A DNA stretch of 64,000 nucleotides from a virus: IMG/VR virus record IMGVR_UViG_3300045988_149572; one strand, given 5' to 3'. Shown piece by piece: positions 6,001 to 60,606 of this stretch (its first letter is position 1; every line of letters starts with the position of its first letter). A program made the position numbers and the translations under genes. The notes under the pieces are model-generated. The model saw only the letters and a list, made by a program, of their open reading frames with translations, was not told the origin of the DNA and ran no database searches.

Positions 6001-9000
6001 ATTTCCCAGGCGAAGACGACGCTCAGAAACTTTACAACGCTGCGGTTGACGGCAGAAAGTCGAGGGCAATAGAATCGTGGCAGGATGAGATGTTCCCCGT
6101 GAAGATGCTCCAAGAGGCGATTGAGAAAGCCACGGGCGAGAAGATAGCCGACTTCGAGAACGCATATCTGTTAGAGAATCAACTCGGCTCGGCAGGAAAC
6201 GCAACGTTGGAGAAGTATGCGAGAGAGGTTCAGAATCCAATGCGCAAGGTGTATCTTGACATGCTCAAAGCCAAGTTTGATGGAGGGAGCAAAGTTACAA
6301 AGTCGGACATCAACAAGTATGTGATAGCGGTTCACGGATTGGAACGCAATAAGTATATGGCGGATAAGAACAAGGGGTTGCCCGATGCTCGCAGGGACTA
6401 TTCCGGTTTTACCGCATTGTTCGGCAATGGAGAGCAAGTAGAGGTTGAAGAACTTGAACGTAGAGCGGAAGAATATATCGGGAAGTTTGAGGATGCAGTG
6501 GGTAAAGACAAAGCGGATAAGCTATGGTCGCTTGTGGATGAATCAAGACAACGCACGTTGGACGAACTTGTGAGGTCAGGCTTGGTAAGCGGCGATGTCG
6601 CAGATGAATGGTTGCGTCGCTTCGAGCACTATGTCCCGTTGCAAGGCTTCTCAGAGGAGGTTATAGGAGAGGACAGAAACGCTAATTTCGAAAACCACAT
6701 CACGGGGCGTATGTCCGAGGCAAGAGACCCTTTGGCAACACTCGTGAATATGGAGTATGTTGCTGTAACGAGCGGCAATCACAACAGAGTGAAACAGGCT
6801 CTTTACAACCTTGCGCTCAACCATAGAACAAACCTTCTCTCTGTAATGCCGATGTTCTCTGTAAAGAATCCAATTACTGGTGAATGGGAGGATGCGGTTC
6901 CGCAGATTGATGAAACGATGTCACCGATTGAGAGACAACGGGAGGTTGATAAGTTTATCAAGCAGATGCGCGTACGTATGCGCGAGGAGAAAGACCTTCC
7001 AGAATCGGACAAAACTGTCAAGGATGCAAGAAAGGTAAGCGTTGGTAGTAAAGTATTGCCTAAAGCTATGCCAGACTTTATTGTGAGGATGAAAGTCAAC
7101 GGCAGACAATATGCGGTTGTCCTCAATGGCAATCCAAGAGCTGCGCAGGCTATAAATGGACGGTTGAAGGAACACCCCAACAAGGCATTGCAGAAGATAA
7201 GCGGAGTGACGAGGTTTATGTCAGCTGCGGTTACTGCTTGGAATGCTGCGTTTATGTTAAGCAACTTTGCAAGGGATGTGCAAGCGGCGAACGCTTTTGC
7301 TTATTCCAACGAGGGAGCAAAATATGCGGCTATGATGGATGCTGAAATCCATAAAAATATGTCGTTGACTTCATTGGGCAGAGATTTGTTTGGGATGAAA
7401 AATAAAGGTATTTATAAGTTATATTATAAATACAGACACAATCAGCTTGACATGAGTAATGAACGGGAAAGATTCTTCAAAGAGTTTGTTGACAATGGAG
7501 GTGAGACCGGGTACACACAGATGGTTGACATTGATAAAATCGCCAAACAGATGCAGAAAGATGAATTTTCTGCAATCAAAGCGATTAAATCGGTCGGCAA
7601 GTTCATTGAATTGGCAAACAAGGGCTTTGAGAACGCGACACGTTTCGCAGCGTATGCAACAAGCCGAAAAATGGGTAAGTCTGTTATGCAGAGCATTAAC
7701 GACGCAAAAGAGATAAGCGTCAATTTCAACAGACACGGAAATGGGCGGAACGGATATGTCATCGCCAAATCGTTGTATCAATTCTTGAATCCTACAATAC
7801 AAGGATTGGAGAAACAATTGCGTACAATAAAAGAACACCCATTAGAGGGCACAGCCGTGTTAATTGCGACACCGATTGCAATAGGATTTGCCATCCCGCT
7901 TGTAAATATCGGATTGGCTATGTTGTCGGGCGGAGGTGACGATGACAAAAAATACTATTGGTCACTTAGCGATTGGACACGCAGAAACAATCTCATTATT
8001 GGTGTGAATGGTAAATTTATAAAAATTCCGTTGCCACCAGAGTTGAGGGTGTTTTATGGAATTGGAGAGATGATTGCGTCGAAGATGAGCAACCCATATG
8101 ACAAGACGAATCTTTTGACTGAAATCCCGAAGCATATCAGTGAAACATTGCCGTTCAATGACACAAACAGTACATTTCCATCGTTTGTTAAACCATTTAT
8201 TGAATCAGAGGTTACAGACAAGGATTTTATGGGCAGAAAGATTACTGGGCGTTCTGACTATAACACCCAAGACCCGGAATGGAAACGGGCGGGCTACAAC
8301 ACAGACGATGAGTATATAGCCGCCGCCAAATGGTGGCACAGCCTGTTTACCGACAACGACAATGAGAGAGGCTCGTGGTTTGCGGAAATCAACCCATCAG
8401 TAGCAGAACATCTTATCAAGGGTTATACAGGAGGAATTGGAAGTATAGTAGGACAAGTGTACACAACGGTAAAGGCAATAGCCAAAGGCAATGAAAAAGA
8501 TTATTCTGATTCAAGAAATTGGCCTATTGTCAACAGAGTTTATGTCCAGACCACCAAAGAAGATGCAGTGAAAAAAACTACAAATACCGCTTATCGTTTC
8601 TATCAAGACAATTACAAAAACTATGAGCATACGTTTAAAGAAACTCTTAAAGATGAAAAATCCGGTATATTCCAAAAGGCTCAAAGAATTTCAAATATGG
8701 TTGAGACTTCGGAATACAAGCGGTACAGAATGACAGAGCCATTTATAAAAGCAGACAAACTTCTTTGGGATGAAATAAAGGCACTCAAAGAGACAGATGA
8801 CAAAGAATCGCTTGAGTGGATTGAAAAAGAACAGACTCGGCTTAGGAGTGTTCTTGTAGAAGCCTCTGAAAAATTTGATATTTATGACAACGCAGGACTT
8901 ACGTACAAACTGGACAGAATGTCAAAGCCAGGTGCTTATAAATCGGATTTGAAGATTGATGTAAAATCAGCACCAAATAAGGATATGCGTAAATTCGCAA

Positions 9001-9089
9001 AAGAGTACAATGTCAAGATCGGCAAATACAAACAACAAACCTATAAAGATGAACAAGAAATAAAGAAACATATTCGTGTTAATAAATAA
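3..9089 (+). CDS. giant polyvalent MuF-like virion protein, C-terminal 3029 codons (5' end runs off the window)
   Basis: Frame 3 is open from base 3; the ORF track starts at GTG 75 only because it needs a start codon. Zincin motifs HEWFH (3198-3212) and HEYTH (4830-4844). Two barnase/EndoU/RelE-like (MuF-C type) segments (~240-510, ~1680-2000). DnaN-motif-like segment (~830-1280). Hydrophobic stretch 7843-7935. Lies directly upstream of portal. Confidence 0.8.
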   Translation, partial: AELDAQKADEEARLEAERKAEEEAVEKDAELKEDKKKPQLKDVVKAIYEKGKSAASRLYKMAFFDVAKTPDFMKKLGLTGDRFTIKYGVLSRHAGKDDSHSLTEKQWEELPDALQKPFAITRFGGKDKGYRLYTTMKNENGETIVVGVDVKNVGRDMEVNAISTIFGRRGDAKKTQKEDVLYTAENITPEQRSLLGQPNSDQYTGVRERNVSTDKGSEKAEKKQKKQSVFDKAKEIADKEEKKRKAEDNSVLGQATRAVGKKKKVNLFKYTASEKNSNSALRGVHYANGYAYASDGYILFKEKADYPKEWEGTTRDKDGNLIDGKYPDAEKAIPRLVHIPDKEVESLPSKEVLDFAIAASKKLKGEAIPVAIDGLFFNAVNLKKFLEAVASKGMDKVVYRHPMLYATNGKDEIVMMPTVNTLEGALDIADRMESAGLPKEQIDAWKAHIEAADKKMSFEDFKKAVENAKKEGVRPTEADKQESKAEAEKQKVDKQGNPIDAEGRLITEKVEDISDLSDDDFNNPKRSVELPKIPKNIDNALGANGKPVIIKKNIFERNKNAHSDLTAEQSREILKTALYSADLYAKNQKSKRPFNWVIIKTKDHDGKNKLVLLEVNDNKDNVEIVHWHYLDDRGLEKIKKQAEREGGQLLILPSEKEEAGALSSRTSDLPADKGSEVGGEKQEAEKKRPAPLSERIEDVGEKIGDARKDVWKEIIARIKNKKQGIEEALKKSSAGKLFSSLFDEKELLESGVSNEVVTFISAVKGSLGTKPRSLSKLKMWINKVLHQYDMCEQALENWESVKKKIDEWKYYSQPFYMYRAAMAVGGYESGRDVGNAELWQIADGYSDGKSVAGQWCVRKAGAYDGIYKTYEEAAEALKKFAGENAAVDGKGKRKEVKLAIYKRRTDGTMFIAPEGKPDVIIQDGFKTLYEASAYKKEHYAEMQERYRTLMDGIKPKFNENRERKGRDWRGGKDVSAEDFREAFDFRGVEFGNWMQQKDRHQALNECYDSLMDLAMVCGVSPKALSLGGKLAMAFGARGGGKFNAHYEPDKVVINLTKTKGAGSLAHEWFHAIDNYFNMQGWDEFATESTRNVERKEMAEAWKDLVRAINGSDYFKRSDKYARLKGSRYWIEPTELGARAFAVWVENRLSKYGTINDYLANNPRLVDEKASDAEKKYAPYPFDKDADWMDEKFGRLFEVMQERVDEETGKHILYSRNKAAGHEKTELTAEERELRDNLVERMRKGGLDVVTDSEEMQRVIDTENERTRMMGAGSVREHRVYHGSGADFDAFDHSHMGEGEGAQAYGWGTYVTEVEGIGRTYAIQNTTKHNDALRALQHDVDAISDQLNRHRDDLKYDEEQLKRANEWRAEAELDYELFKDEAEELKEKYGESSPKYRNHLFNDIYTDEMKRAQSSVKSMEESIQYRKEKIAELEKALKDKQAEIDELPKEFPRHLYTVEIPDDNGSNYLDWNGHPAESLLKDVGSFLESEGFERVQDNPVRYEKGESTVVLNPNATGADLYAELREVLGSDKKASQALAELGCIGIKYPADNMRGGREDGAKNYVIFNENDAKITDHTRFLRTADGEVYGLVKDGRIYLDPKVATAETAVHEYTHLWGDMLRRKDSEQWSHTVKELKNSVLWEEVKELYPELKTDDEIADEVLSTFSGRRGAERLREEARRVADGEGGVFTKAKAIETLERVKEAIARFWEGVARMFGINRYRSAEELADMAMKDLLDGVDPRKMGNNEKGIGFSAKQKRALETVTMADKSTNKATAISSADGAKVQNNLEILAESYNNRSNKTKGFITDLSQALNLERHEASHYGTFETQKGKLVTIRVSNHNARVSLFDKNGENDGISIVISNHKNKGLLNDGNAHIIEFFYSKQSLQRADGKPLSDIIRSVSEVLYSGEFKDTTGLAERQEVNGDDVIRFQFIGEKGAAEADHAEEVFANENVERSVRENPKSEEPRFSRKPGESIFDYASRVSEDGLLFRDGGTEYDFPGEDDAQKLYNAAVDGRKSRAIESWQDEMFPVKMLQEAIEKATGEKIADFENAYLLENQLGSAGNATLEKYAREVQNPMRKVYLDMLKAKFDGGSKVTKSDINKYVIAVHGLERNKYMADKNKGLPDARRDYSGFTALFGNGEQVEVEELERRAEEYIGKFEDAVGKDKADKLWSLVDESRQRTLDELVRSGLVSGDVADEWLRRFEHYVPLQGFSEEVIGEDRNANFENHITGRMSEARDPLATLVNMEYVAVTSGNHNRVKQALYNLALNHRTNLLSVMPMFSVKNPITGEWEDAVPQIDETMSPIERQREVDKFIKQMRVRMREEKDLPESDKTVKDARKVSVGSKVLPKAMPDFIVRMKVNGRQYAVVLNGNPRAAQAINGRLKEHPNKALQKISGVTRFMSAAVTAWNAAFMLSNFARDVQAANAFAYSNEGAKYAAMMDAEIHKNMSLTSLGRDLFGMKNKGIYKLYYKYRHNQLDMSNERERFFKEFVDNGGETGYTQMVDIDKIAKQMQKDEFSAIKAIKSVGKFIELANKGFENATRFAAYATSRKMGKSVMQSINDAKEISVNFNRHGNGRNGYVIAKSLYQFLNPTIQGLEKQLRTIKEHPLEGTAVLIATPIAIGFAIPLVNIGLAMLSGGGDDDKKYYWSLSDWTRRNNLIIGVNGKFIKIPLPPELRVFYGIGEMIASKMSNPYDKTNLLTEIPKHISETLPFNDTNSTFPSFVKPFIESEVTDKDFMGRKITGRSDYNTQDPEWKRAGYNTDDEYIAAAKWWHSLFTDNDNERGSWFAEINPSVAEHLIKGYTGGIGSIVGQVYTTVKAIAKGNEKDYSDSRNWPIVNRVYVQTTKEDAVKKTTNTAYRFYQDNYKNYEHTFKETLKDEKSGIFQKAQRISNMVETSEYKRYRMTEPFIKADKLLWDEIKALKETDDKESLEWIEKEQTRLRSVLVEASEKFDIYDNAGLTYKLDRMSKPGAYKSDLKIDVKSAPNKDMRKFAKEYNVKIGKYKQQTYKDEQEIKKHIRVNK

Positions 9090-29757: not shown

Positions 29758-31008
29758 TCAGTCAAGCAAGTCCACAAGCTCCTTCTTGATGTCGTCGTCG
29801 ATGTTGCGGTAACGGGAGAAAGCCTTGCTTCCATCCTTGTGACCGGACATAGAGCCGACAAGATTGGGGTCTTTGACCTGTTTGTAAAGGTTGCCTATGA
29901 ACGTCCTGCGTGCAAGATGGGAGGAGGCTATCTCGTTGATTGGTCTGCGCACCTCGCATCCTTTGGAAGAATCATAGACAAGCACCGACCTCGTTATGCC
30001 ACAGATGGTGAAGAACCGCTTTATGGCTGCGTTATATGCTTGGTCTGCGATGAAAGGGAACAGCCTGCCGTCCTTGTCCACTCCCATATATTTCTTCACA
30101 AGCATCCGCGCGCTGTTGTTCAGCGGCACTCTGACGATGTCGGTATGTTCGCTTCGTGTCTTCCGGGGAATATACTCCACGGCTCCGTTCACAATATTGT
30201 CGGTGGTCAGCCTTGTGAGGTCGGACACACGGCAACCGATGCAGCACTGGAACAGGAAAATATCTCTCTGTACCTCAAGGGAAGGGTAGTCGGACAAGTC
30301 GTAGTTGGCTATGCGGTTGCGTTCCGCTATGCTTATATAATAAGGTGTGCCGTATCTTTCCGCTTTCACCGACACGTTGTCGGTCGGAGAGCGGTCGATG
30401 ATTCCAAGCGTCACCATCTCCTTGAACAAAGAGCGCAGACGTTTGAATGTAGTGCATATATAGTTTGCTCCGCCAATCTTCTCCACATCCTTGATGTAAG
30501 ACAGGAATTTCCTCACGTCATCCTCCGTCATCGTTTTCAAAGTAAGACTGTATGAAGGGGAGTATTTACGTCTGAACACCTCGAAACTTTTCAGTTTGTT
30601 CTTCAGCACCTCATATCCTCGCAACGTTCCCAAAGCGATGTTCTTGTGGGCGAGCAGGTCGGCAAATTCCTCATCGAGAGCCATCGGCTCTTCCTTGTCC
30701 TCCGGATTAAGAACGTCCTCCACCATTCTCTGCAAGTCACGGCTTGTGCGTATGTCCGCATAGTGGGAGGAGTAGACACGCATAATGATGTCCTTGAGAT
30801 AAGCCACCTTGTTGTCCACATCTTCCCTATACGCAATCTGGCACATCGCACGCTGTTTGATGCATTCTTTTTTGGAATCCCATAGAGAAGGGTACACCAT
30901 AATGTGGCTGATGAAGTATAACTGCACCTTGCGTCCGTCACTCAGACGGAAGCGTATTTTGACCTCGGAATCTTTGGTCGTTCGGATGAATGCTTTGATT
31001 GTTGCCAT
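29758..31008 (-). CDS. int: tyrosine recombinase / phage integrase
   Basis: Catalytic Arg context CCIGCRVSDL, SSHLARRTF (HxxR), and GHKDGSKAFSRY (His and Tyr). The MATIKAFIRT...IRFRL N-terminus is typical of Bacteroidales Arm-binding integrases, so ATG 31008 is preferred over 31053. Confidence 0.9.
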   Translation of the reverse strand: MATIKAFIRTTKDSEVKIRFRLSDGRKVQLYFISHIMVYPSLWDSKKECIKQRAMCQIAYREDVDNKVAYLKDIIMRVYSSHYADIRTSRDLQRMVEDVLNPEDKEEPMALDEEFADLLAHKNIALGTLRGYEVLKNKLKSFEVFRRKYSPSYSLTLKTMTEDDVRKFLSYIKDVEKIGGANYICTTFKRLRSLFKEMVTLGIIDRSPTDNVSVKAERYGTPYYISIAERNRIANYDLSDYPSLEVQRDIFLFQCCIGCRVSDLTRLTTDNIVNGAVEYIPRKTRSEHTDIVRVPLNNSARMLVKKYMGVDKDGRLFPFIADQAYNAAIKRFFTICGITRSVLVYDSSKGCEVRRPINEIASSHLARRTFIGNLYKQVKDPNLVGSMSGHKDGSKAFSRYRNIDDDIKKELVDLLD

Positions 31009-31025
31009 ACGCAAAGGTATGAAAC

Positions 31026-31252
31026 TTGCACAACACTTGCACAACATTTGCACAACATATTTGTTATCGGTTGTGATTATTTAATACTATCTGTACAATC
31101 AAACATTTCAAAATGCTGATTATCAAGTGATATGAAAACAAACCAAGTGAACGGCTAACAAACAACGTTGTCCGGGTAAGACAACAAGGGTAGTCTGACT
31201 ATCAGAAAGTTATGGTGGATGTGCGGTGGATTTGCACAACATTTGCACAACA
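31026..31252 (+). promoter_or_regulatory. attP-like region flanked by TTGCACAACA arm-type repeats
   Basis: Five same-orientation copies at 11-bp phasing: 31026, 31037 and 31048, then 31232 and 31243. They bracket ~175 bp of AT-rich non-coding DNA next to int. Confidence 0.55.
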
Positions 31253-35044: not shown

Positions 35045-35890
35045 TTAAAGCTCCGTTTTCTCGTTTACTCGTTCGAACCGCTTGCACGCAGGGCGCATCT
35101 GTGACGCATTGTATGAAGGCCACTTGCAATGTCCCTTTGCGGCGACCTCATATCTGTAGTTGGCGCACACTCCACAGCAACGGAACTTGTCTGCCTGTGC
35201 CACGCTGATGCTCTTCAGCTCTCTAATGGCAGCGTCGATGCAAGCCTCCAATGCCGCCCGCTTGCGTTTGTTCACTTCGTTCACCTGCGCTGCCACGCTC
35301 TTCTCCTCGATGGCGATGCACGCTTTTTGTATAGCCACGAGATTGTTTATGCTTGGAGGGGTAATCTTCAACGGCACTTCCGCACACGCAGTAGCAAGGC
35401 GTTCGGTGTACTCCTCGGCAAACTCAATCGCCATAAGCGAGAGAAACCGCACCACCTCACTCTGTGCGTTTATGTCGGAATCGTCGACATCATAATTGAG
35501 AGAGCGGATAAATTCCTCCACGATAAGGCGAAGGAGCGAGAACACCTTCTTCGTGTCCTCGAAGAAGCGGTATTCTAAGAACTGCATCAATTGCAGTTCC
35601 GCACCGAACATTCCTCCTGTCAATTCTTTTTTGAGGTCACGAATGGCGTTGCCAAGGTCACAACTGACACGCTTGTAGATGAGATTGCCGTCCTTGTCGG
35701 TTTTGAAGTTGAAGCACAGATAGCGGAGCCGTTCCGCCTCACGGATCGTGAGCAGTGCGATGAACAATGGTTTAAGCACGAGGTTTCTGACCTCGCAAGG
35801 TTGGAGCGGTTTTGGTGGCTGCTCCGGAGCTACGGCAGTGCGTCTTGCGGTCGCTGCCGTCAGTCTGATGGGGAATAGTATCATCGACAT
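35045..35890 (-). CDS. hypothetical protein with C-terminal Cys cluster
   Basis: 281 aa. Ends with FRCCGVCANYRYEVAAKGHCKWPS...ACKRF. Confidence 0.6.
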   Translation of the reverse strand: MSMILFPIRLTAATARRTAVAPEQPPKPLQPCEVRNLVLKPLFIALLTIREAERLRYLCFNFKTDKDGNLIYKRVSCDLGNAIRDLKKELTGGMFGAELQLMQFLEYRFFEDTKKVFSLLRLIVEEFIRSLNYDVDDSDINAQSEVVRFLSLMAIEFAEEYTERLATACAEVPLKITPPSINNLVAIQKACIAIEEKSVAAQVNEVNKRKRAALEACIDAAIRELKSISVAQADKFRCCGVCANYRYEVAAKGHCKWPSYNASQMRPACKRFERVNEKTEL

Positions 35891-36471
35891 TCGTTGATAA
35901 ATCGTTCTTGTTGTTTGTCGTAAAACTCTTTGTTAATCTCGCAACCTACAAAGTCAAAGCCGAGATTATACGCGGCTATCCTTGATGAGCCACTGCCTAA
36001 ATGCGTGTCAAGAATCTTGTCGCCTTGCTTTGCAAAGGTCTTAATGAGATATTCGTATAACGCCACAGGTTTCTGCGTTGGGTGTATACGTTTCTGTATG
36101 AATAGATGACTGAATAGTTTCGCCGGCGCCTTGAACGATGTCCACAAGTATTCGCACGCAGAGAAGTTTTTCCACGGCTGTCGCTTGTCCCACACAACGA
36201 AACATCTGCAAGGCGGCAGATTGAAATAATTACCTCCACAGATAATCTGATTCTTCGACACGCGGAACAACTCCTGGAAATATTCATCCGTAGGCGAAAT
36301 ATCCCATTCCATCGGCATTGTGTTCAACGCCCTTATGCACTTCTTGCCTCCTGTAATGCCTGCGCCACTCGCTTTAAGACCATAAGGAGGATCAACAATG
36401 GCTAAATCAAAAGCCTTGTCGGGGAGAGTGTGCATATACTCTATGCAGTCAATATTGTATGCTATATTCAT
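35881..36471 (-). CDS. orphan DNA N6-adenine/N4-cytosine methyltransferase (beta class)
   Basis: Motif IV IVDPPYG lies N-terminal and motif I DTHLGSGSS lies C-terminal. This is the permuted order of PF01555-type enzymes. Confidence 0.85.
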   Translation of the reverse strand: MNIAYNIDCIEYMHTLPDKAFDLAIVDPPYGLKASGAGITGGKKCIRALNTMPMEWDISPTDEYFQELFRVSKNQIICGGNYFNLPPCRCFVVWDKRQPWKNFSACEYLWTSFKAPAKLFSHLFIQKRIHPTQKPVALYEYLIKTFAKQGDKILDTHLGSGSSRIAAYNLGFDFVGCEINKEFYDKQQERFINECR

Positions 36472-39974: not shown

Positions 39975-40559
39975 TTACAAGAAAACCTTGTTGTAAAGGT
40001 CTACGAATTGTTTTCCGAATTGCGCGGCACGTATACGTGTCTTGAAACAAAGCCGAGAACCGAAATTCGCAGACGCATGCGTAGGCGTGTTACCCGTATT
40101 CGCGTACACAAACCCCGCAGCATCCTCGTCATATTCGAACCAAGGAAACCACTTGTCTTGTTCTCTATCCGAAAAATTTGGAACAAAGCCATCTTCCTTA
40201 TTCCATGCCTGTGCGATGGTGAACAGTTTGTTCAATGCGATCAACGCTTCAATGTGCTTGGGATTGATGTCACTAACGAACTTAGGAACGTGTTCAGAGA
40301 GGTTGTAACATGTATTGGGTTTTAGTCCAAGAGCTTTCATTGCTCTTTTAAAGTCTGTGATTACTTCGTCCACTTGCGGGCATTCAACCTCTTCAAGAGT
40401 GAAATCAAACGGCGACAAATGATTGTCAACGTCCCAATTTTCGTTGTGGTAGCTGAGGTATCTCATCAACTCTCTTCCAGCTTCTTCACGTGATTCGTGG
40501 ACGGCTTGCATAACAGTCTGTTCGCTTCCATCCGCGTTTTTGATAATGTACTTTCTCAT
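39975..40559 (-). CDS. hypothetical protein
   Basis: 194-aa ORF in the early operon. Confidence 0.6.
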   Translation of the reverse strand: MRKYIIKNADGSEQTVMQAVHESREEAGRELMRYLSYHNENWDVDNHLSPFDFTLEEVECPQVDEVITDFKRAMKALGLKPNTCYNLSEHVPKFVSDINPKHIEALIALNKLFTIAQAWNKEDGFVPNFSDREQDKWFPWFEYDEDAAGFVYANTGNTPTHASANFGSRLCFKTRIRAAQFGKQFVDLYNKVFL

Positions 40560-40562
40560 TGC

Positions 40563-40766
40563 TTATTGATTTAGAAATTCTAAAAGTTCTTCCGCTTGGC
40601 TGAGGGCGAAATCTGAGTCGGAGCCTTCGTCGTATTCCTTGACAGTCACCCAGCCGTACCATTTTCTCACCTGCACCGCATAAGTCGTGATGCTTGACTG
40701 CACGATCGGCAGTCGGCCGCTGTGCGTGAAGCACGCATAGATTCTCGGTCGTATTCTGTACCTCAT
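40563..40766 (-). CDS. hypothetical protein
   Basis: 67-aa ORF. ATGA overlap with the upstream gene. Confidence 0.45.
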   Translation of the reverse strand: MRYRIRPRIYACFTHSGRLPIVQSSITTYAVQVRKWYGWVTVKEYDEGSDSDFALSQAEELLEFLNQ

Positions 40767-41077
40767 TCCTCACCTCCTTTCGGTTTTTTGCGCGCTTCAG
40801 CGTCAGCGGATATAACTGCATTTATCTTGTCACGCTCTTTTGCTGCAATATGGTTGTGAGCATAGAGGCGAGCAGCCACATATATGTTGTGACCGAGTCC
40901 TTTGTCTTTGAGCATCATCAAATAGATGAGACGCGCTATAGCGTATGATGTCCCCGCAGCATGAGCCCACATCTCGTCCTCTTTATTATTTGCCAAGATT
41001 ACCACTGCTGTACGATTCTTCTTGTCTTCATTAAGCCAATATTTACTACAGTTGATGATTTTTTCTGCTTCTTTCAT
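40763..41077 (-). CDS. hypothetical protein
   Basis: 104-aa ORF. Confidence 0.5.
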   Translation of the reverse strand: MKEAEKIINCSKYWLNEDKKNRTAVVILANNKEDEMWAHAAGTSYAIARLIYLMMLKDKGLGHNIYVAARLYAHNHIAAKERDKINAVISADAEARKKPKGGEE

Positions 41078-41112
41078 TGTCTTTTAAATTTTTTATTAGA
41101 GTTAAATAAACT

Positions 41113-41331
41113 TTATTCCTCGCCTCCTTTCTTCAGTTCAGCGATTAGAGCGTCAGCGATCATGACTGCATCTTTTACTCCACGTTCGAGACCCTTGCCG
41201 TAATATTCAAGAATCGTGTGCGGTAATATATCCTTTGCTATCTCATATCTGCGCTGCTCCCAGTCTGGAGTGCGCAATGTCTTGGCGATACTCACCACCG
41301 CCTCCGCTTGTCTTTGTTCTAAAACATTCAT
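41113..41331 (-). CDS. hypothetical protein
   Basis: 72-aa ORF. Confidence 0.45.
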   Translation of the reverse strand: MNVLEQRQAEAVVSIAKTLRTPDWEQRRYEIAKDILPHTILEYYGKGLERGVKDAVMIADALIAELKKGGEE

Positions 41332-41346
41332 TGTCTTTTAGTTTTG

Positions 41347-42561
41347 TTAGATTATGTCAAAAATGTCCAGTTGTCTTGGTTCTGTCACTCGTCCGGAGGG
41401 GAAGAACAATTGCTCGAAGATATGTTCCATACAGGCGACCACAATTGAGTTGCCTGCGAGCTTGTATTGCTGGGACTCCGAGATGTACATCGGCTTCCCG
41501 TTCTTTCTGTGACCCTTGACGTAGTTTTTGATCTTGTTGTAGTCCTCATCTGAGACATCCATCAGGCGGAAACACTCGCGCGGAGTAAGTCTGCGGATGC
41601 GATATGGAAACGTGTCACCGTAGACGTTGTTAGGTCTGGCGGACGTGAGGGTTGACCCCACGGATTCGGCGAACTCGGTCTGTAGTTCTGCGACACCGCT
41701 TTTCGCTTTGTCCTGCCTATAAGGGCGCAGGTTGTTGTCCTTGTCCACCGACACTCCACAAGGCTGACGGCGAACCTCCTCCGCTACTCGGCGAACCTCC
41801 TCCGCTACTCGGCGAACCTCCTCCGCCTTCGGCTCCAAGACTGCGTTTTCCTCACCCGTGAGGAGAGTGCCGATGATGTCGCCCTTGTTGCCCTGTACTC
41901 TCCCTCGGCGAGTACGGGATGACGGCTGAGAGATGTTGACCGCACCGTACTCCTCCACCTCCGCAAAGCCTTCCCTTGTGTTGGCTTTGATGCGCAAAGG
42001 TTCAAGCAGCATATTGTCTTTCTGCACGCTTGTTATAGTGTTGGACACACCGTCTGTTCTTGGTTCCATCTGTTGCATATATTTCCTTTGTATGTTAATT
42101 CTGTGATTCTCATAATCCTTTCTCAGAAGTTTGGCTTCTTCGGTGCGCTTGGGAGTCAATACATTAGGCTCCCTTCCTCTACTCGCCACCACGAACGGCT
42201 CGGCGATAGAGACGGTCTCTCCGTGGTTGTTCATATCAACAATCGGCTTTGGCTCCAACACATATTGAGCAGTGTTGCCCCTTGTCCCCGTGCTGCAATG
42301 GATGGTGTTCGCTACCTCTTTCGTGTGGTAGTTCTCAATCTTTCCTTTCTTGTCGCGTGAGTAACTCACAATCTTAGGTTCTTCTTTCATCTCGATTATT
42401 TTAGGGATAAGCCCTCCCCCCGACGGGGTGGTGATGGCAGGAGAGACACCATCCGTTATGTACATTCTATATGCCCGATGAAGACCGCTCTCCACGGTCA
42501 TCACTCTGTCCGTCTTCTTCATTGCTTGAATCTTCACTAACGAAATACATACAATTGGCAT
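41347..42561 (-). CDS. DNA cytosine-5 methyltransferase, C-terminal part (TRD-like repeats plus motifs IX-X)
   Basis: RIRRLTPRECFRLMDV is motif IX and KLAGNSIVV is motif X. Preceded by several G[IV][AS]xT[IL]-type TRD-like units (GVSPAITTPSGGG, VANTIHCS, GVSNTITS, DIIGTLLTG, SVGSTLTS). Confidence 0.8.
   Translation of the reverse strand: MPIVCISLVKIQAMKKTDRVMTVESGLHRAYRMYITDGVSPAITTPSGGGLIPKIIEMKEEPKIVSYSRDKKGKIENYHTKEVANTIHCSTGTRGNTAQYVLEPKPIVDMNNHGETVSIAEPFVVASRGREPNVLTPKRTEEAKLLRKDYENHRINIQRKYMQQMEPRTDGVSNTITSVQKDNMLLEPLRIKANTREGFAEVEEYGAVNISQPSSRTRRGRVQGNKGDIIGTLLTGEENAVLEPKAEEVRRVAEEVRRVAEEVRRQPCGVSVDKDNNLRPYRQDKAKSGVAELQTEFAESVGSTLTSARPNNVYGDTFPYRIRRLTPRECFRLMDVSDEDYNKIKNYVKGHRKNGKPMYISESQQYKLAGNSIVVACMEHIFEQLFFPSGRVTEPRQLDIFDII
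41768..41827 (-). repeat. in-frame 21-bp tandem repeat (about 2.9 copies)
   Basis: CGGCGAACCTCCTCCGCTACT repeated on the + strand. It encodes AEEVRRV AEEVRRV AEEVRR inside the methyltransferase. Confidence 0.9.
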
Positions 42562-42968
42562 TCACCCTCGCCTTGATGGTTCCGGCTATGTCGTTGACGC
42601 ATTGGTTGTATGTGTCTATCCATAGCCCCCCCCCCCCCTATCAATTTTCGGGAGCATCCGCTGAAGCCGCTTGCCCCCTGTCGCTTGTTTCTTCATTTCT
42701 CAGTCTGTTTTGATCGTAATCTTCCACGATGACCACCCCCCCCCCTATATCCGTGGTTGCGGAGGCATCGTGCCACCCCGTTGCAGGATATGATGTCCTC
42801 GCTTCTATATCCCGTCTTCTCGATCACTATGACCTTGTCTGTTTCCATTTTCCTCGTCTGCTATAGTTACTATACTTCCGTGGTTCAGCATCACCGTCGG
42901 AGAGATTCCGTCAGTACCGATGACGATACCGCTTATCTGACTCTTCGGGTAAAGCCTTCCGACACGGT
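42562..42968 (-). pseudogene. multi-frame TRD-like segments with poly-G tracts between the two C5-MTase ORFs
   Basis: Hand translation gives TRD-like pieces in different frames (GISPTVMLNHGSIVTIADE; GVARCLRNHGYRGGGG; DIAGTIKARVNANCMYFVSED). They are separated by C10 (42736-42745) and C13 (42626-42638) runs on the + strand. Confidence 0.5.
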
Positions 42969-43790
42969 TTATTGTTCTTGGATGTAATTGTCGTCGTTCC
43001 TCATCACGCCTGCTTGGATTGTCTTCGCTATACCCCCCCCCTCGGTGTACTCAAACTTGTGGTTGGTGGTGGTTTCGGCGTTCCATTTCAGCCGCCCCAA
43101 TATCACGTCAGTCTTAAGATAGTATCTATCCTCGACACTCTCACCGTCGTGGTATGTAACAAGTACGTCACGGAGCCGTCTTTCCAACGGGAACGGCTGA
43201 GGAAAATCATACTTGATGCCGCTCGGGAACAACTGTGGGAACTTGGCGGACGCATCCTTGCGGATGCTTAACGCGAACACCCTCACACGGTTCTGCGGAA
43301 CACCGAAATCTTTAGCGTTTATCTTCTTCCAGTATGTCTTGTAGCCTTGCTCGTCAAGGTAGTCAATCCATCGCTGGAAGTCGGGCATAAACTTCTTGGA
43401 AGCCAACGCCGCCACGTTCTCGAGTAAAAGGAATGACGGACGCTTCGTCTCTATCGCCCTCCTACACTCCCATAGCAATGATGAGCGCGAACCACTGCCT
43501 TCCTGCAAGCCTCGCTGAAGTCCGGCATTGCTGATGTCCTGACAAGGGAAGCTGTAGGTGAACAAGTCGAAGTCAGACACTCGCTCCCAATCGACCTTGC
43601 TTATGTCACCGTGGTTGCATTCGGCATATTCGGGGAACACGGCATTGTGGGCGGCTATTGCGTCATTGTCAATCTCGCTCCATCCGACAAGCTGGAAATC
43701 CGCACCGCCAGCGTGGCGCCGTGCGACTCGGCGCAGAGCCATCATCTGCGAGCCGTAGCCGGCGAAAGCCTCGAACACTCTGATTCTCAT
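42969..43790 (-). CDS. DNA cytosine-5 methyltransferase, N-terminal catalytic part (motifs I-VIII)
   Basis: FEAFAGYGSQ is motif I, SFPCQDIS is motif IV, LLENV is motif VI and QNRVRVF is motif VIII. Ends in a TRD-like EGGGIAKTIQAG encoded through a G9 tract (43033-43041). Confidence 0.85.
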   Translation of the reverse strand: MRIRVFEAFAGYGSQMMALRRVARRHAGGADFQLVGWSEIDNDAIAAHNAVFPEYAECNHGDISKVDWERVSDFDLFTYSFPCQDISNAGLQRGLQEGSGSRSSLLWECRRAIETKRPSFLLLENVAALASKKFMPDFQRWIDYLDEQGYKTYWKKINAKDFGVPQNRVRVFALSIRKDASAKFPQLFPSGIKYDFPQPFPLERRLRDVLVTYHDGESVEDRYYLKTDVILGRLKWNAETTTNHKFEYTEGGGIAKTIQAGVMRNDDNYIQEQ

Positions 43791-44278
43791 ATCAATCCGT
43801 TATTTGTGCTTCCGAAGCCGCCTTTTCCGCGCTCGGTAGCTTGGTTGAACAACTCTTCCTCATCCACGACCTCGACACCCTCATAGCTCACGGGGGTAAG
43901 CACGAACTGCGCCACCTTCATTCCTGGATGAATTACTTCTACGCATCTGCCGACATTGATGAGATGTATGTATATCTCGCCTTGATAGTCCTCGTCGACA
44001 ACGCACGCTCCGACAACGAGCGTTCCTTTGGGGGCGTTTGCCTTTGGCGTCAGACCAGCGCGCCGCATAGCGTCTGTGGATGTCGCCACGCTGGAGCGGT
44101 TCATCGCAATCAGCGCGTAGCCGTGCGGCACTTCCGCCCTTATACCGCTCGGCACGAGGATGTCAGTCCCCGATGTCAGCCGAGCCGTGAAGCCTTTCGG
44201 CACGTAGAAGTCCAGCCCTGCCGAGCATTCAGTCCCTCTTGTGGGGGTCTTCACCTCCCTAATCTTCGTTATCTTCAT
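43787..44278 (-). CDS. dut: dUTP diphosphatase
   Basis: AGLD, NRSS, VVDEDYQGEI and the C-terminal RGKGGFGST are the five dUTPase motifs. Confidence 0.9.
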   Translation of the reverse strand: MKITKIREVKTPTRGTECSAGLDFYVPKGFTARLTSGTDILVPSGIRAEVPHGYALIAMNRSSVATSTDAMRRAGLTPKANAPKGTLVVGACVVDEDYQGEIYIHLINVGRCVEVIHPGMKVAQFVLTPVSYEGVEVVDEEELFNQATERGKGGFGSTNNGLI

Positions 44279-44427
44279 CTGTTTCTGACGATTTTAATTG
44301 TTCTTGGATCTATTCTGACAATTCGCCCTCCCTCGTCACGCTTGCGCAGGACAGGAAGCAACTCAAGAGCCTTGCGGCGGCTCAATCTCAAGTCAGCCTT
44401 TGAGTTCTCTATAACGTCGTAGTTCAT
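44275..44427 (-). CDS. small hypothetical protein (50 aa)
   Basis: Not in the ORF track because it is under 60 aa. MNYDVIENSK...IKIVRNR. Its TGA overlaps the dut ATG (ATGA), and it fills an otherwise empty gap. Confidence 0.35.
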   Translation of the reverse strand: MNYDVIENSKADLRLSRRKALELLPVLRKRDEGGRIVRIDPRTIKIVRNR

Positions 44428-44429
44428 AA

Positions 44430-44708
44430 TCAGTACAGTTTATTGAGTTCGTAAGCCTTTATCACTCTTCTCACATCCCTCTGCGTCATTAGGTAAATAT
44501 TAGCAATGACACTGACGGGGGTGGAAAGCATATACGCCTTGTAGACATCCTTGTGAAGAGGGAATCGGATGTCAAGCACCTCCACAATCATTTTCTGTTT
44601 GGGGGAGTAGTGAGCTATGGCGTCGCGAAAAAAATAGTCCACCGCCTCACTCTTGGCCTTGAAAGCCATTGCCTCTTCCTCCGGAGTGTAGTAGTTTTCG
44701 TTCCTCAT
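44430..44708 (-). CDS. hypothetical protein
   Basis: 92-aa ORF in the operon. Confidence 0.5.
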   Translation of the reverse strand: MRNENYYTPEEEAMAFKAKSEAVDYFFRDAIAHYSPKQKMIVEVLDIRFPLHKDVYKAYMLSTPVSVIANIYLMTQRDVRRVIKAYELNKLY

Positions 44709-58598: not shown

Positions 58599-59123
58599 AT
58601 GATAGGTAGCATTATAGGAGGAGCGATGAAGCTCGGTGGGAGCATCTTTGGCGGCATCAAGGCGAGCCGAGAGGCGAAAAAACAGCAGAAAATGCTTGAC
58701 GCTCAAAAGGCTGAAAATCAAGCATGGTATAATAGGCGATACAATGAGGACGGCACTCAGCGTGCAGATGCCCAACGTTTGTTGACCAACACGCAAGACT
58801 TGTTGCGCAGACAGACAAAGGCGGCACAGGGAGCCAATGCGGTGACGGGCGCAAGCACGGAGGCTGTGGCGGCGCAAAAGGCGGCGAACAATCAAGCACT
58901 TGCCGAAGCGACAAGCACCATTGCCGCTGCATCTGATGCTCGCAAGGACAATATCGAGCAGCAGTATCAAACCAACAACAACGCTTTGGCGGACAAGCAA
59001 ATGCAAATCAGCCGACAGAAACAAAACGCTATCACGCAGGCAGTGCAGGGCGTGGCAGGTACGGCTGATAGCATAGGCGGCATCAATGACAGATTTGACA
59101 AGGACAACGACAAGACGAAGTGA
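58599..59123 (+). CDS. Gly/Gln/Ala-rich virion-internal-type protein
   Basis: 174 aa. MIGSIIGGAMKLGGSIFGGIKA followed by a Q/A/N-rich helical region, resembling pilot or ejection proteins. Confidence 0.5.
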   Translation: MIGSIIGGAMKLGGSIFGGIKASREAKKQQKMLDAQKAENQAWYNRRYNEDGTQRADAQRLLTNTQDLLRRQTKAAQGANAVTGASTEAVAAQKAANNQALAEATSTIAAASDARKDNIEQQYQTNNNALADKQMQISRQKQNAITQAVQGVAGTADSIGGINDRFDKDNDKTK

Positions 59124-59124
59124 T

Positions 59125-60606
59125 ATGGATAAAAAAAAAGACATCATAGGGGGTAGCGAAGCCCCCGTAATCACCGACAAAAAAGTGACTACGACTCCAC
59201 CGACAACGTCAATTGGCGCGACTACTCCATCGCAGAGCGAGGACGGGTACAACGAGAATCCGCAGACACCGCCGCAGACGATGCCTGCTCAACCGCAACC
59301 TACTCAGGTTGCTCCGACCGCTCCATCACTCGCTGCCCAGCCGCAAGGAGAGGAGTATAATGATAGACCGCAAGCACCACCTACTACGCCTGCCCCGGCT
59401 GTCACGACAACGGCTCCGCAGTACGATGACACCGACAGGCGCAACCAAGCAAACTTGGCAGCACAGACGACCACAGCTCCGGCTGCCAATGAAAATATGA
59501 TATTGCAGTTTGACGAGACTGGCAAGCCTACCCTTGTCAAAACGGATGTTGCAACGCCGAAAATAACCCCAAAAACGACCGATACGGCTCCTTCGACCGA
59601 TGCTACACCATCAACGGAAGGTGAGGAGTTCCGCTCTTATAGAGATATCCTCGCCAAGTACGCACCTCTAACGAGTGACGAGGAGAAAAAGAAGCAGATG
59701 CGGCGCGAGAAGCGGAATGCCATCATCGGTGCTCTCGGTGATGGATTGTCGGCGTTGTCCAACCTCTACTTTACCACCAAGGGAGCCCCCGACCAAGGCC
59801 TTAAGCCAGGGTTGACCGAGTCCGCAAAAAAGCGGATGGATGATCTACGTGCGCAATGGCAGAAGGAGAAGGACAAATATCAAGACCTTATGCTAAAAGG
59901 TCTTGAGATGGATAGAGAGCAGGGCAATTGGCTGAAATCATACGAGTTGCAGAAAAATGAGGAGGAGCGCAAGCAGAAGACGTTTGAGCAAGAATTGCCG
60001 TTGCTCGAGAAAAAGGTGCAAGCCGCTGAAGAAGAGTTGAAAAAACTTATCCGCGAGAACAACATTGGCGATGATACGTGGCAGCAGAGTGTGGAGGTCA
60101 AAAAGCAAGAACTGGCTTGGAAAAAATACGAGCTTGAATTTATGAAATCGCACAAAGGGTACAGCCCTAAAGAGTGGGAGGAACACTTGGCTACCGAGCG
60201 TTACCGCAGCCGCACGTTGTCAAACAAGGGCGGCAAAAGCGGCAAGAGCGGCAAAGAAAAAAGTGGCGGTAACATCATTATGTCAACACAGAGTGGATAC
60301 GCCTACAATCCTACGGATGCACAGGTAAGACAAGCATACAGATGGTTGCAGTCCCGGCATTTTGTATCTGGCAATGCAAAAAGCATAAGCGAGATGGTCG
60401 CGGAATTGCAAAATTACTACACTGTATCAGGGGAAAACAGAAATATATACGATGGCGCAAGTATTGAAAAAAGCAGACTTGACGATATTAAAGGAGGACC
60501 CCGTGTGGATGCGATGTTGGGAGGTAAGACGAGAGGAGATGGAAGCACTACGATAGACGCTGCTATTGGTGGCGGTAGTGGCGCTTTGTTGGATGGACTT
60601 TTATAA
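59125..60606 (+). CDS. P/T/Q-rich protein with C-terminal coiled coil
   Basis: 494 aa from ATG 59125. Low-complexity TTPPTT...PQPTQVAPT region, then a K/E-rich coiled coil. Confidence 0.6.
   Translation: MDKKKDIIGGSEAPVITDKKVTTTPPTTSIGATTPSQSEDGYNENPQTPPQTMPAQPQPTQVAPTAPSLAAQPQGEEYNDRPQAPPTTPAPAVTTTAPQYDDTDRRNQANLAAQTTTAPAANENMILQFDETGKPTLVKTDVATPKITPKTTDTAPSTDATPSTEGEEFRSYRDILAKYAPLTSDEEKKKQMRREKRNAIIGALGDGLSALSNLYFTTKGAPDQGLKPGLTESAKKRMDDLRAQWQKEKDKYQDLMLKGLEMDREQGNWLKSYELQKNEEERKQKTFEQELPLLEKKVQAAEEELKKLIRENNIGDDTWQQSVEVKKQELAWKKYELEFMKSHKGYSPKEWEEHLATERYRSRTLSNKGGKSGKSGKEKSGGNIIMSTQSGYAYNPTDAQVRQAYRWLQSRHFVSGNAKSISEMVAELQNYYTVSGENRNIYDGASIEKSRLDDIKGGPRVDAMLGGKTRGDGSTTIDAAIGGGSGALLDGLL

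Follow-up and report, generated by a model that had tools for sequence, protein, structure and literature searches.

The virus sequence IMGVR_UViG_3300045988_149572, analysed here over a stretch of 64,000 nt (the 64-kb window), is that of a temperate phage of the human gut and was recovered from human gut metagenomes. On the minus strand, to which all features of the locus below belong, lies a gene whose motifs and profile matches identify it as a DNA cytosine (C5) methyltransferase, split into separate open reading frames (ORFs) and with a modular variable region like that of the phage phi3T enzyme. The N-terminal ORF (N ORF; product, alpha) spans 42969-43790 and encodes 273 aa. The C-terminal ORF (C ORF; product, beta) spans 41347-42561 and encodes 404 aa from the ATG at 42561, or 391 aa from the start chosen by gene callers (MKKTDRVM, ATG 42520-42522). 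The N ORF matches positions 2-227 of the PF00145 profile (E 5e-48, 164.6 bits) and the C ORF positions 252-322 (26.2 bits), both above the Pfam gathering score of 22. Motifs I (FAGYG, 43746-43775), IV (PCQ, 43530-43550), VI (ENV, 43404-43427) and VIII (QNR, 43275-43295) were found in the N ORF and motifs IX (RxLTxRE, 41554-41604) and X (GNSI, 41437-41466) in the C ORF, all in the correct order. An initial annotation of the stretch had placed motifs I-VIII in the former and IX-X in the latter, and the profile positions bear this out.

Enzymes of the PF00145 family carry all ten motifs on a single polypeptide; here the N ORF is ended by the TAA at 42969-42971 which, as the same annotation stated, is not at a homopolymer. 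The break falls inside the variable region and leaves motifs I-VIII and IX-X on separate products, as in M.AquI. The start of the N ORF overlaps by 4 nt the stop of a dUTPase gene located upstream (43787-44278), and a gap of 407 nt, in which modules 2-4 lie in shifted frames, separates the N ORF from the C ORF. The division into two ORFs described at the outset stands, but it left out that the middle units have small ORFs of their own and that no combination of tract lengths restores a single ORF (see below); the locus is better described as an N ORF, two potential mini-ORFs and a C ORF. An Rfam scan of 40500-44500 gave nothing at gathering thresholds.

Between motifs VIII and IX we located nine units resembling target-recognition domains (TRDs), of the form G[IV][AS]xT[IL]...hhxE, and one remnant, in agreement with the count of about nine made initially. 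They can be aligned with one another and are contiguous, as are the modules of multispecific enzymes. In what follows U denotes a unit and T1-T5 the poly-G tracts. Unit 1 (GGGIAKTIQAGVMRNDDNYIQEQ, 42972-43040, frame 0) runs into the TAA that closes the N ORF and has a homologous first unit in intact relatives, e.g. GDVIASSITAHPNDRPCDNFIKEP. Unit 2 with its tail (GTDGISPTVMLNHGSIVTIADE, 42808-42918, frame 2) ends at a stop at 42805-42807. The unit 3 module (42644-42848) consists of U3a in frame 0, then T2, then U3b (VVIVED...) in frame 1, and could be read as a mini-ORF from the ATG at 42846-42848 (METDK...). The unit 4 module (42470-42696) likewise has a potential mini-ORF, which starts at the ATG at 42694-42696 (MKKQATGGKRLQRMLPKIDR, frame 2) and is followed by T3 and by U4 (LWIDTYNQCVNDIAGTIKARVNANCMYFVSED...) in frame 1; it is homologous to KRVQSLVDSGKISGHEVQFLDAYNQKVSDICGTIKTTVDSSCLSFISEP of intact relatives. 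The remaining units lie in the C ORF, all of them in frame 2: unit 5 (TDGVSPAITTPSGGGLIPKIIE, 42391-42456), which holds T4, U6 (42250-42321), the remnant U6b (42196-42234), U7 (41998-42057), U8 (41830-41886) and U9 (41614-41667). The full U6b of relatives holds a fifth tract, T5 (G8-11), where the window has an in-frame deletion of 72 nt. Between U8 and U9 the C ORF also contains a perfect in-frame tandem repeat of 21 nt (AEEVRRV, 2.8 copies, 41768-41826); two copies are present in L008, L102 and P0165 (L numbers denote loci, P numbers protein clusters) against three in the window, which makes it a second, in-frame variable repeat of the gene.

The N and C cores both align to the multispecific methyltransferase of phi3T (E 9e-27 and 2e-13). 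Over 34 aa, unit 5 shares 44% identity (E 2e-6) with the phi3T variable-region TRD RVYSPEGLSPTLTTMGGGHREPKIAE, and the linker VLTPKRTEE aligns to VLTPEREEK of phi3T. The closest solved structure, that of M.MpeI (4dkj), aligns through residues 312-393 with the last unit and motifs IX-X, pairing ESVGSTLTSARPNN... with NGIGPTLTASGAN.... The phi3T methyltransferase has two specificities, and two to four TRDs have been mapped in the multispecific enzymes of Bacillus phages; two unit-like stretches can be recognised in the phi3T variable region. The proposal of an SPR/phi3T-like multispecific enzyme with more modules stands, because the alignments of the cores, unit 5 and the linker, together with the intact multi-module relatives described below, all point to it.

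The poly-G tracts are located exactly where the initial annotation had put them. T1 (G9, 43033-43041) lies at the end of the N ORF, T2 (G10, 42736-42745) inside unit 3, where it encodes a glycine loop, T3 (G13, 42626-42638, the longest seen) inside the unit 4 module, and T4 (G6, in frame, 42416-42421) inside unit 5. Of what had been said of the gap, the presence of three units in differing frames was correct, but the tracts do not separate the units, since the G10 is inside unit 3 and the G13 inside the unit 4 module. A further, fixed run of G5 (42674-42678) marks the place at which the frames of U3b (1) and the unit 4 module (2) diverge. There are six G/C runs of at least 6 nt in the window, and the three of at least 9 nt are all in this gene; a G9 is expected by chance 0.08 times per window, and the observed count was reached in 0 of 100 shuffles. 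Such homopolymers within coding sequence, of at least 7-8 nt and far over chance, are the hallmark of contingency loci. Codon usage does not account for them: GGG is the rarest glycine codon of the phage (64/620 glycine codons, 10%, in 12 long ORFs), and GGGGGG encodes 0 of the 48 Gly-Gly pairs in those ORFs. Mixed codons encode the homologous GG/GGG loops of tract-free intact relatives and of phi3T (GGC GGC GGT). In lineages just about 50% identical to the window (L022, L039, L044, L046 and others) tracts of G7-G14 occupy the same glycine loop, after the PT[IL]xT of the module. The tracts thus look maintained or selected rather than accidental.

Two further observations concern tract sequence. 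T1 is interrupted by an A in L002, L133 and L136 (GGGGGAGGG or GGGGGAGGGG) and still encodes Gly-Gly-Gly; such an interruption would fix T1 at the length that keeps unit 1 (9 nt) or unit 2 (10 nt) in phase. The distant relative L049 has a G8 at gene nt 274, in the catalytic half just past motif IV (...SLAGVQ-GG-QEGSGTRSSLLWEC), and this would be a plain on/off switch and not a module switch.

Tract lengths were pooled from 28 non-redundant genomes drawn from IMG/VR, Logan/ENA and JGI contigs, and 21 different combinations of T1, T2 and T3 were found among them. T1 ranged from 7 to 11 nt (commonest, 8), T2 from 6 to 12 nt (commonest, 8 and 9) and T3 from 6 to 13 nt (commonest, 9), while T4 was G6, 7, 9, 11 or 12, or an interrupted TGGTGG, in relatives. 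The tracts also differ between genomes that are otherwise nearly identical. L093 and L094 have the same N-half DNA as the window (0 mismatches/749 nt), with lengths for T1, T2, T3 and T4 of 9, 10, 13 and 6 in the window, 9, 9, 10 and 6 in L093, and 9, 9, 8 and 9 in L094. A single mismatch in 11.3 kb separates L105 from L106, and they have no indels besides T1-T3 and one scaffold gap, yet their T1 is 10 and 8, their T2 7 and 9 and their T3 11 and 9, respectively. Across 16 related genomes the A7, T7, C5-6 and G5 runs in the surrounding 15 kb were of constant length and showed substitutions only, whereas the G9, G10 and G13 tracts spanned lengths of 6-13. The G5 run at 42674-42678 had a length of 5, or was interrupted as GGCGG, in every relative aligned there. 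When 11 genes of the clade were aligned, all small indels that were not multiples of three fell at poly-G tracts, with a single exception in L011; this is a 1-nt deletion off the tracts, at gene nt 383, which cuts the catalytic half to 141 aa. The same tract states recurred in independent runs and assemblies (L094 = L096, L106 = L107). Tracts that are polymorphic between near-identical genomes and have stable flanks are what is seen at contingency loci. The tracts are hypermutable, and the slipped-strand variation suggested in the initial annotation has strong support at the DNA level.

The window includes, among many other long ORFs, an unbroken ORF of 3004 aa at 75-9089 (plus strand), which we take as evidence of an assembly without indel errors. 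Two contigs stop at the tracts: L097 (k119_35923, 64,302 nt), 100% identical to the window over 5146 nt, ends just ahead of T3 with an Illumina adapter attached, and the window-identical contig L098 ends within T2. Such breaks may come from a sample in which tract lengths were mixed or from the failure of reads past long G runs; of frequent, reversible switching within a clonal population they are the sole, indirect hint. The exact length of the G13 is the least certain number in the window.

The length of T1 modulo 3 sets the end of the N ORF. With G9, alpha has 273 aa and ends with unit 1 and then a stop; with G10 or G7 it has about 328 aa and ends with unit 2, which is joined to the N ORF solely in these states; with G8 a stop follows immediately (TEGGV*), and alpha has 253 aa and neither unit. 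The initial annotation had predicted that one G added to the G9 would carry translation through the next unit. We computed a 328-aa product through U2 for this change, and the 328-aa form occurs naturally in L003, L004, L105 and protein clusters P0003-5. In the protein database, the cluster of the 273-aa (G9) form, P0001, has 726 members and the 327/328-aa (G10) forms have 277, and a 444-aa C ORF (P0208) was found beside either 328-aa or 253-aa N ORFs. Alphas of 253, 273 and 328 aa are thus all seen in nature, a change of product with tract length of the kind that defines a contingency locus. T1, which is the clearest case, reads as a three-way switch by which the C-terminus of alpha would consist of unit 1, of unit 2 or of neither. 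Each of these states is common in nature, and there is constraint on both of the alternative coding frames.

T2 and T3 lengths open or close the small ORFs with units 3 and 4. The 72-aa unit 3 ORF is complete if T2 is a multiple of 3 (L094, with T2 = G9, is an example), and the 75-aa unit 4 ORF (MKKQ...) is complete solely at T3 = 8 or 11 (L094, L105). Beta in turn is broken, in its N-terminal part, in several genomes in which T4 or T5 is out of phase. The METDK start opens a 494-aa C ORF in P0165, where unit 4 is deleted and translation passes in frame via unit 3 into beta, and in P0205 and P0228 the unit that follows T5, up to the next GG run, is read out of frame before the frame is regained. 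These architectures suggest how modules get toggled.

A megablast search of 50,697 phage records with the locus gave 0 matches, and protein-level matches to known phages reached about 50% identity at most. Human-gut assemblies account for more than a thousand database entries with the alpha half, and several lineages have versions with tracts; the locus is therefore not confined to one contig. Among the database clusters listed, which come from hundreds of assemblies, close relatives of alpha have 186-344 aa and those of beta 351-494 aa, and the beta homologs all start near MKKTDRVM. More than 120 beta clusters at 90% identity, mostly with a single member, stand against one alpha cluster (P0001) with 726 members, because modules have been gained, lost and exchanged. 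The sole fused gene among the clade loci fetched was that of L008 (622 aa), and none was present among the database clusters listed. A deletion from T1 to T4 is found in L008 and in L007, and L007, which has one extra G in T1, stays split. Deletions of module size between tracts thus produce new architectures, the fused one included.

Intact enzymes are common among tract-free relatives. In IMG/VR they are single ORFs of 341-724 aa at 44 of 80 loci, 18 cases being left unclassified in this count of intact and split loci (the motif IX pattern failed on some loci of the clade), and in the protein database all 120 top clusters are single proteins of 503-946 aa. Recognisably the same modules are present in these intact enzymes, all in one frame, among them relatives of 568-724 aa and enzymes of 500-740 aa from tract-free sister phages. 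One sister-clade member, P0295 (946 aa), is an intact multi-module C5 methyltransferase that also contains PF07591, PF14528 and PF14890, which we take to be Hint/intein and LAGLIDADG homing-endonuclease domains, so that this gene may hold an intein.

Two relatives, L061 and L074, are split and tract-free: they have a 230-aa N ORF, a TRD-only ORF of 65 aa (MIKTD..., gene nt 846-1044) and a C ORF from MNKIIQVGN (gene nt 1091). Starts of ORFs in other split relatives are MDNVEVIQVGN, MRKEDKVIQIGN, MKTDKIIL and similar, and at this module boundary the sequence of intact relatives is EPKIIQVGN. A Met so placed fits the separate translation of downstream pieces and not random decay. TRD-only ORFs of 50-90 aa with such a Met, as in L061 and L074, were also noted in L044, L046, L056, L035 and L049. 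The mini-ORFs with units 3 and 4 in the window may be silent cassettes activated by deletion or recombination, or real TRD-only peptides.

Both halves and the shifted units are under purifying selection. In the 16 related genomes omega was about 0.20 for alpha; for U1, U2, U3a, the segment ahead of U4 (preU4) and U4 it was 0.07-0.32 in the frame proper to each but in neither of the alternatives. U1 gave 0.32 in frame 0, with 0.84 and 2.0 for the remaining frames, and U2 gave 0.18-0.20 in frame 2. Codon positions, for which every variable site was counted once in the predicted frame, gave the same picture. Third positions made up 126/216 of the variable sites in alpha, 11/21 in unit 2 and 11/20 in its tail (both frame 2), 9/15 in U3a (frame 0), 9/12 in preU4 (frame 2) and 8/12 in unit 4 (frame 1), and for the segments of the gap together 53/92 variable sites fell at third positions of their own frame. 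The last 160 codons of beta gave 63/103, with 0 internal stops in 22 genomes. This third-position bias was present in all well-aligned segments, weakly so in U3b, and L103 made U4tail and U5 ambiguous. A pseudogene would be expected to show omega near 1 and no codon-position bias, which is not the pattern obtained; selection on both products is, on the other hand, a property shared with M.AquI. The two-subunit enzyme that the initial annotation listed among its explanations gains support from this selection on the halves and from their separation in all the listed clusters and in all the fetched loci except L008.

On these grounds the locus most likely acts as a stochastic switch for the choice of DNA sequences to be methylated by the phage, because tract lengths differ between otherwise identical phage genomes. 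The explanation that we favour, at somewhat better than an even chance, is that of an orphan, split alpha/beta C5 methyltransferase of the M.AquI type, multispecific, in which the poly-G tracts reversibly re-phase recognition modules. The recognition-domain array would have grown to about nine modules. Alpha would supply motifs I-VIII, for AdoMet binding and catalysis, and beta units 5-9 and motifs IX-X, and by analogy with M.AquI and other split C5 methyltransferases the two would assemble in trans into an active enzyme. Tract states would change which modules are present, and hence which motifs are methylated on the phage DNA, and progeny would differ in their protection against host restriction, methylation-dependent systems included, so that the locus would act as a bet-hedging contingency locus. 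We hold as a rather improbable extension of this idea that the modules are separately translated, exchangeable specificity peptides (about 65-75 aa, with a Met at module boundaries) which dock on the split alpha/beta core, with tracts and tract-to-tract deletions as combinatorial switches.

Several observations weigh against the reversible re-phasing of modules. When T1-T3 were each varied within ±2, no combination yielded one ORF. The reason is that the whole clade shares three or four fixed frame changes that lie off the tracts: from U1 (frame 0) to U2 (frame 2) at the TAA at 42969-42971, from U2 to U3 near an A4, from U3b to the unit 4 module at the G5 at 42674-42678, and from U4 to U5. Removal of one G from the G5 gives ...SDRGKRLQRML..., colinear with intact relatives, and the fixed changes are also present in L102 and L103, which have N halves (P0008 and P0009) just 76-77% identical to that of L008 used as query. 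Because of these frame changes, units 3 and 4 could be produced solely as peptides of about 70 aa that consist of a TRD and nothing else, and we know of no precedent for these. Neutral drift would also produce the spread of tract phases seen over the 28 genomes (T1 modulo 3, 6:7:15; T2, 12:7:9; T3, 15:8:5), and just 5 of the 28 have unit 4 in frame. The codon-position signal could stem from donor phages via module recombination and not from selection at this locus. The units are identified as TRDs by sequence similarity only. When 20 units were made into a profile and searched against PDB, M.MpeI alone was found, in the expected place and with a non-significant E of 0.6, and a single 48-aa unit gave chance matches only. 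The structure predicted for P0165 without an alignment had a mean predicted local distance difference test score (pLDDT) of 33, and in that predicted for P0241, an intact sister-clade enzyme, from a 50-sequence alignment, the core was confident and the array had a pLDDT of 20-35.

Some of these points are those expected of a partly or wholly decayed locus, in which a once-intact multispecific methyltransferase acquired slippery tracts and no longer functions in most genomes, the middle units are dead cassettes, the variation is noise without a phenotype and function returns solely by way of rare deletions such as that of L008. The fixed off-tract frame changes and the failure of any tract combination to restore one ORF would follow, as would the near-uniform phases (especially of T2 and T3, with unit 4 in frame in 5/28), the deletion in the catalytic half of L011, nonsense mutations in L024, L045 and L055, and the rarity of the intact fused form (1 locus among the clade members examined, 0 among the database clusters listed). 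We nevertheless think decay, which is the main rival, unlikely, since both halves, and every shifted unit in the frame that belongs to it, show coding-type constraint, the 273-aa alpha has 726 members, and the halves persist at just 76-77% alpha identity to the query; moreover, long G tracts are kept in several lineages against the codon usage of the genome, start codons stand at module boundaries, and split C5 methyltransferases are known to be active. The initial annotation had coupled decay with assembly errors as one explanation. Its first half retains, for a partial decay, the low probability given here and draws on the fixed off-tract frame changes. Its second half was rejected: a homopolymer artefact of sequencing or assembly, although long G runs are hard for Illumina and T2 or T3 is where certain contigs stop (in one case with an adapter), is scarcely credible when the same states recur in independent assemblies, other homopolymers are invariant, the 3004-aa ORF is unbroken, the TAA and the other fixed frame changes lie off homopolymers and split forms occur in hundreds of assemblies.

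It could also be that the enzyme is a plain two-subunit one, of constant specificity conferred by the units of beta, to which T1-T3 and units 1-4 are irrelevant leftovers. The commonest alpha, at 14 of 28 in the metagenome sample, is indeed the 253-aa form cut at T1 (G8), the fused enzyme of L008 is without units 1-5, and no overlap is needed when the split is in the proximal variable region (PMC3404938). Against this, units 1, 2, 3a, preU4 and U4 are third-position-biased in their own frames, beta itself contains T4 and T5 and is broken by them in several genomes, P0205 and P0228 leave the frame for one beta unit and then resume it, and the tracts are mostly kept uninterrupted (3 interrupted T1 were seen); these points make constant specificity quite a doubtful account. 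Recoding offers another way in which tract length would matter little, with RNA polymerase slippage or ribosomal frameshifting giving a mixture of products that includes the full-length one. All frames near the tracts are open over short distances, and transcriptional slippage is known in bacteria on runs of 9-13 identical bases, but it is best documented on A/T runs, and the A4 region, the G5 and the U4/U5 overlap are without a slippery motif. Slippage at the tracts alone cannot therefore yield a full-length product, and we regard recoding as very improbable. Programmed ribosomal frameshifting at the fixed frame changes was considered separately and rejected, no slippery motif being visible there.

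The phage genes of the window include an integrase (29758-31053), a major head protein-like ORF, ERF and DnaB. A scan of a genome collection found relatives of alpha, 56% identical, in Bacteroidales and Muribaculaceae metagenome-assembled genomes (MAGs), and ORF 59086-60606 has a weak match to a Bacteroides phage. The host is probably a member of the Bacteroidales, an assignment deduced from those relatives, which are only 56% identical. Scans of flanking ORFs (some of the neighbours) revealed no restriction endonuclease or other defence gene; among these the methyltransferase is therefore an orphan, i.e. a phage enzyme with no cognate endonuclease. A second methyltransferase ORF, of the N6/N4 type, is located at 35881-36471 (minus strand, 196 aa) and matches PF01555 over profile positions 152-217 only; it seems to be of native size, because the version in L104 has 184 aa. 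About 3.6 kb downstream of the methyltransferase locus is an IS110-family transposase (PF01548 and PF02371; 36693-37754, minus strand), probably an insertion sequence riding on the phage. The 3004-aa product of 75-9089 (plus strand) is a single ORF with no function assigned. In relatives, candidate counter-defence genes lie near the methyltransferase, at 104-841 in L104, at 8273-8791 and 9880-10887 in L105 and at 2657-3562 in L095; they encode an Apyc1-like metallo-beta-lactamase (weak match), a Tad2-like protein and PAPS-reductase-like proteins. The methyltransferase appears to lie in a variable neighbourhood devoted to anti-defence or DNA modification.

If tract states do change the motifs that are methylated, the locus would represent phage-side epigenetic bet-hedging against restriction, methylation-dependent systems included. 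It would also provide a natural toolkit of C5 recognition modules of about 40-70 aa with readable on/off states, and would matter for the binning and host assignment of phage contigs by methylation pattern. Were the modules to act as separate specificity peptides, C5 methyltransferases would have a Type-I-like "S-subunit" logic, and gut phages a programmable methylation repertoire, heritable yet reversible. Multispecific phage methyltransferases, split C5 methyltransferases and phase-variable methyltransferases are each known; as far as we searched, their combination has not been described, and the literature searched held no account of several hypermutable tracts each gating one module of a multispecific C5 methyltransferase.

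Like the Bacillus phage enzymes M.Phi3TI, M.SPRI, M.Rho11sI and M.H2I, the enzyme described here is a phage-borne orphan C5 methyltransferase with a homologous core and with short recognition modules side by side between motifs VIII and IX. It differs from them in having about nine modules where phi3T has two unit-like stretches, and in being spread over several frames and ORFs where they are one polypeptide. Hypermutable G runs encode the glycine loops that phi3T encodes as GGC GGC GGT, and the probable host is a gut member of the Bacteroidales and not Bacillus.

M.AquI and M.EcoHK31I are natural C5 methyltransferases of two polypeptides (PMC3404938). In M.AquI, alpha contains motifs I-VIII together with a portion of the variable region, and beta the rest of it and motifs IX-X; fragment complementation has been obtained for M.BspRI, M.BsuRI, M.HhaI and M.SssI, best with a cut in the proximal variable region (PMC3404938). 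The break in the present gene is likewise in the proximal variable region, motifs I-VIII and IX-X are separate, and both parts are conserved. In contrast to those enzymes, a 407-nt gap that holds three more modules, in other frames, lies between the two ORFs, variable tracts set the ends of both products, and assembly into an active enzyme is a prediction.

Phase-variable methyltransferases of bacteria include the Type III mod phasevarions and the Type I hsdS genes with homopolymers, such as that of NgoAV, in which the loss of one G changes the specificity. As in these systems, a homopolymer in a methyltransferase or specificity gene shifts the frame, and as in hsdS the outcome would be a change of specificity and not on/off switching; unlike them, the gene is an orphan of Type II-like C5 character, is carried by a phage, and has three to five tracts, each tied to a module. 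Among phages, poly-G tracts are present in the receptor-binding genes of Campylobacter Fletchervirus phages (Sorensen 2021), and a recent claim extends contingency loci to T-even phages. The methylase gene of the Bordetella phage BPP-1 has been noted to contain a poly-G tract, which was not studied further (PMC12633550). The locus described here resembles the contingency loci of phages in its hypermutable G runs of 7-13 nt and its heterogeneous progeny, but in this case several tracts lie within a modular recognition array, and they would affect the epigenetic pattern of the phage and not its adsorption.

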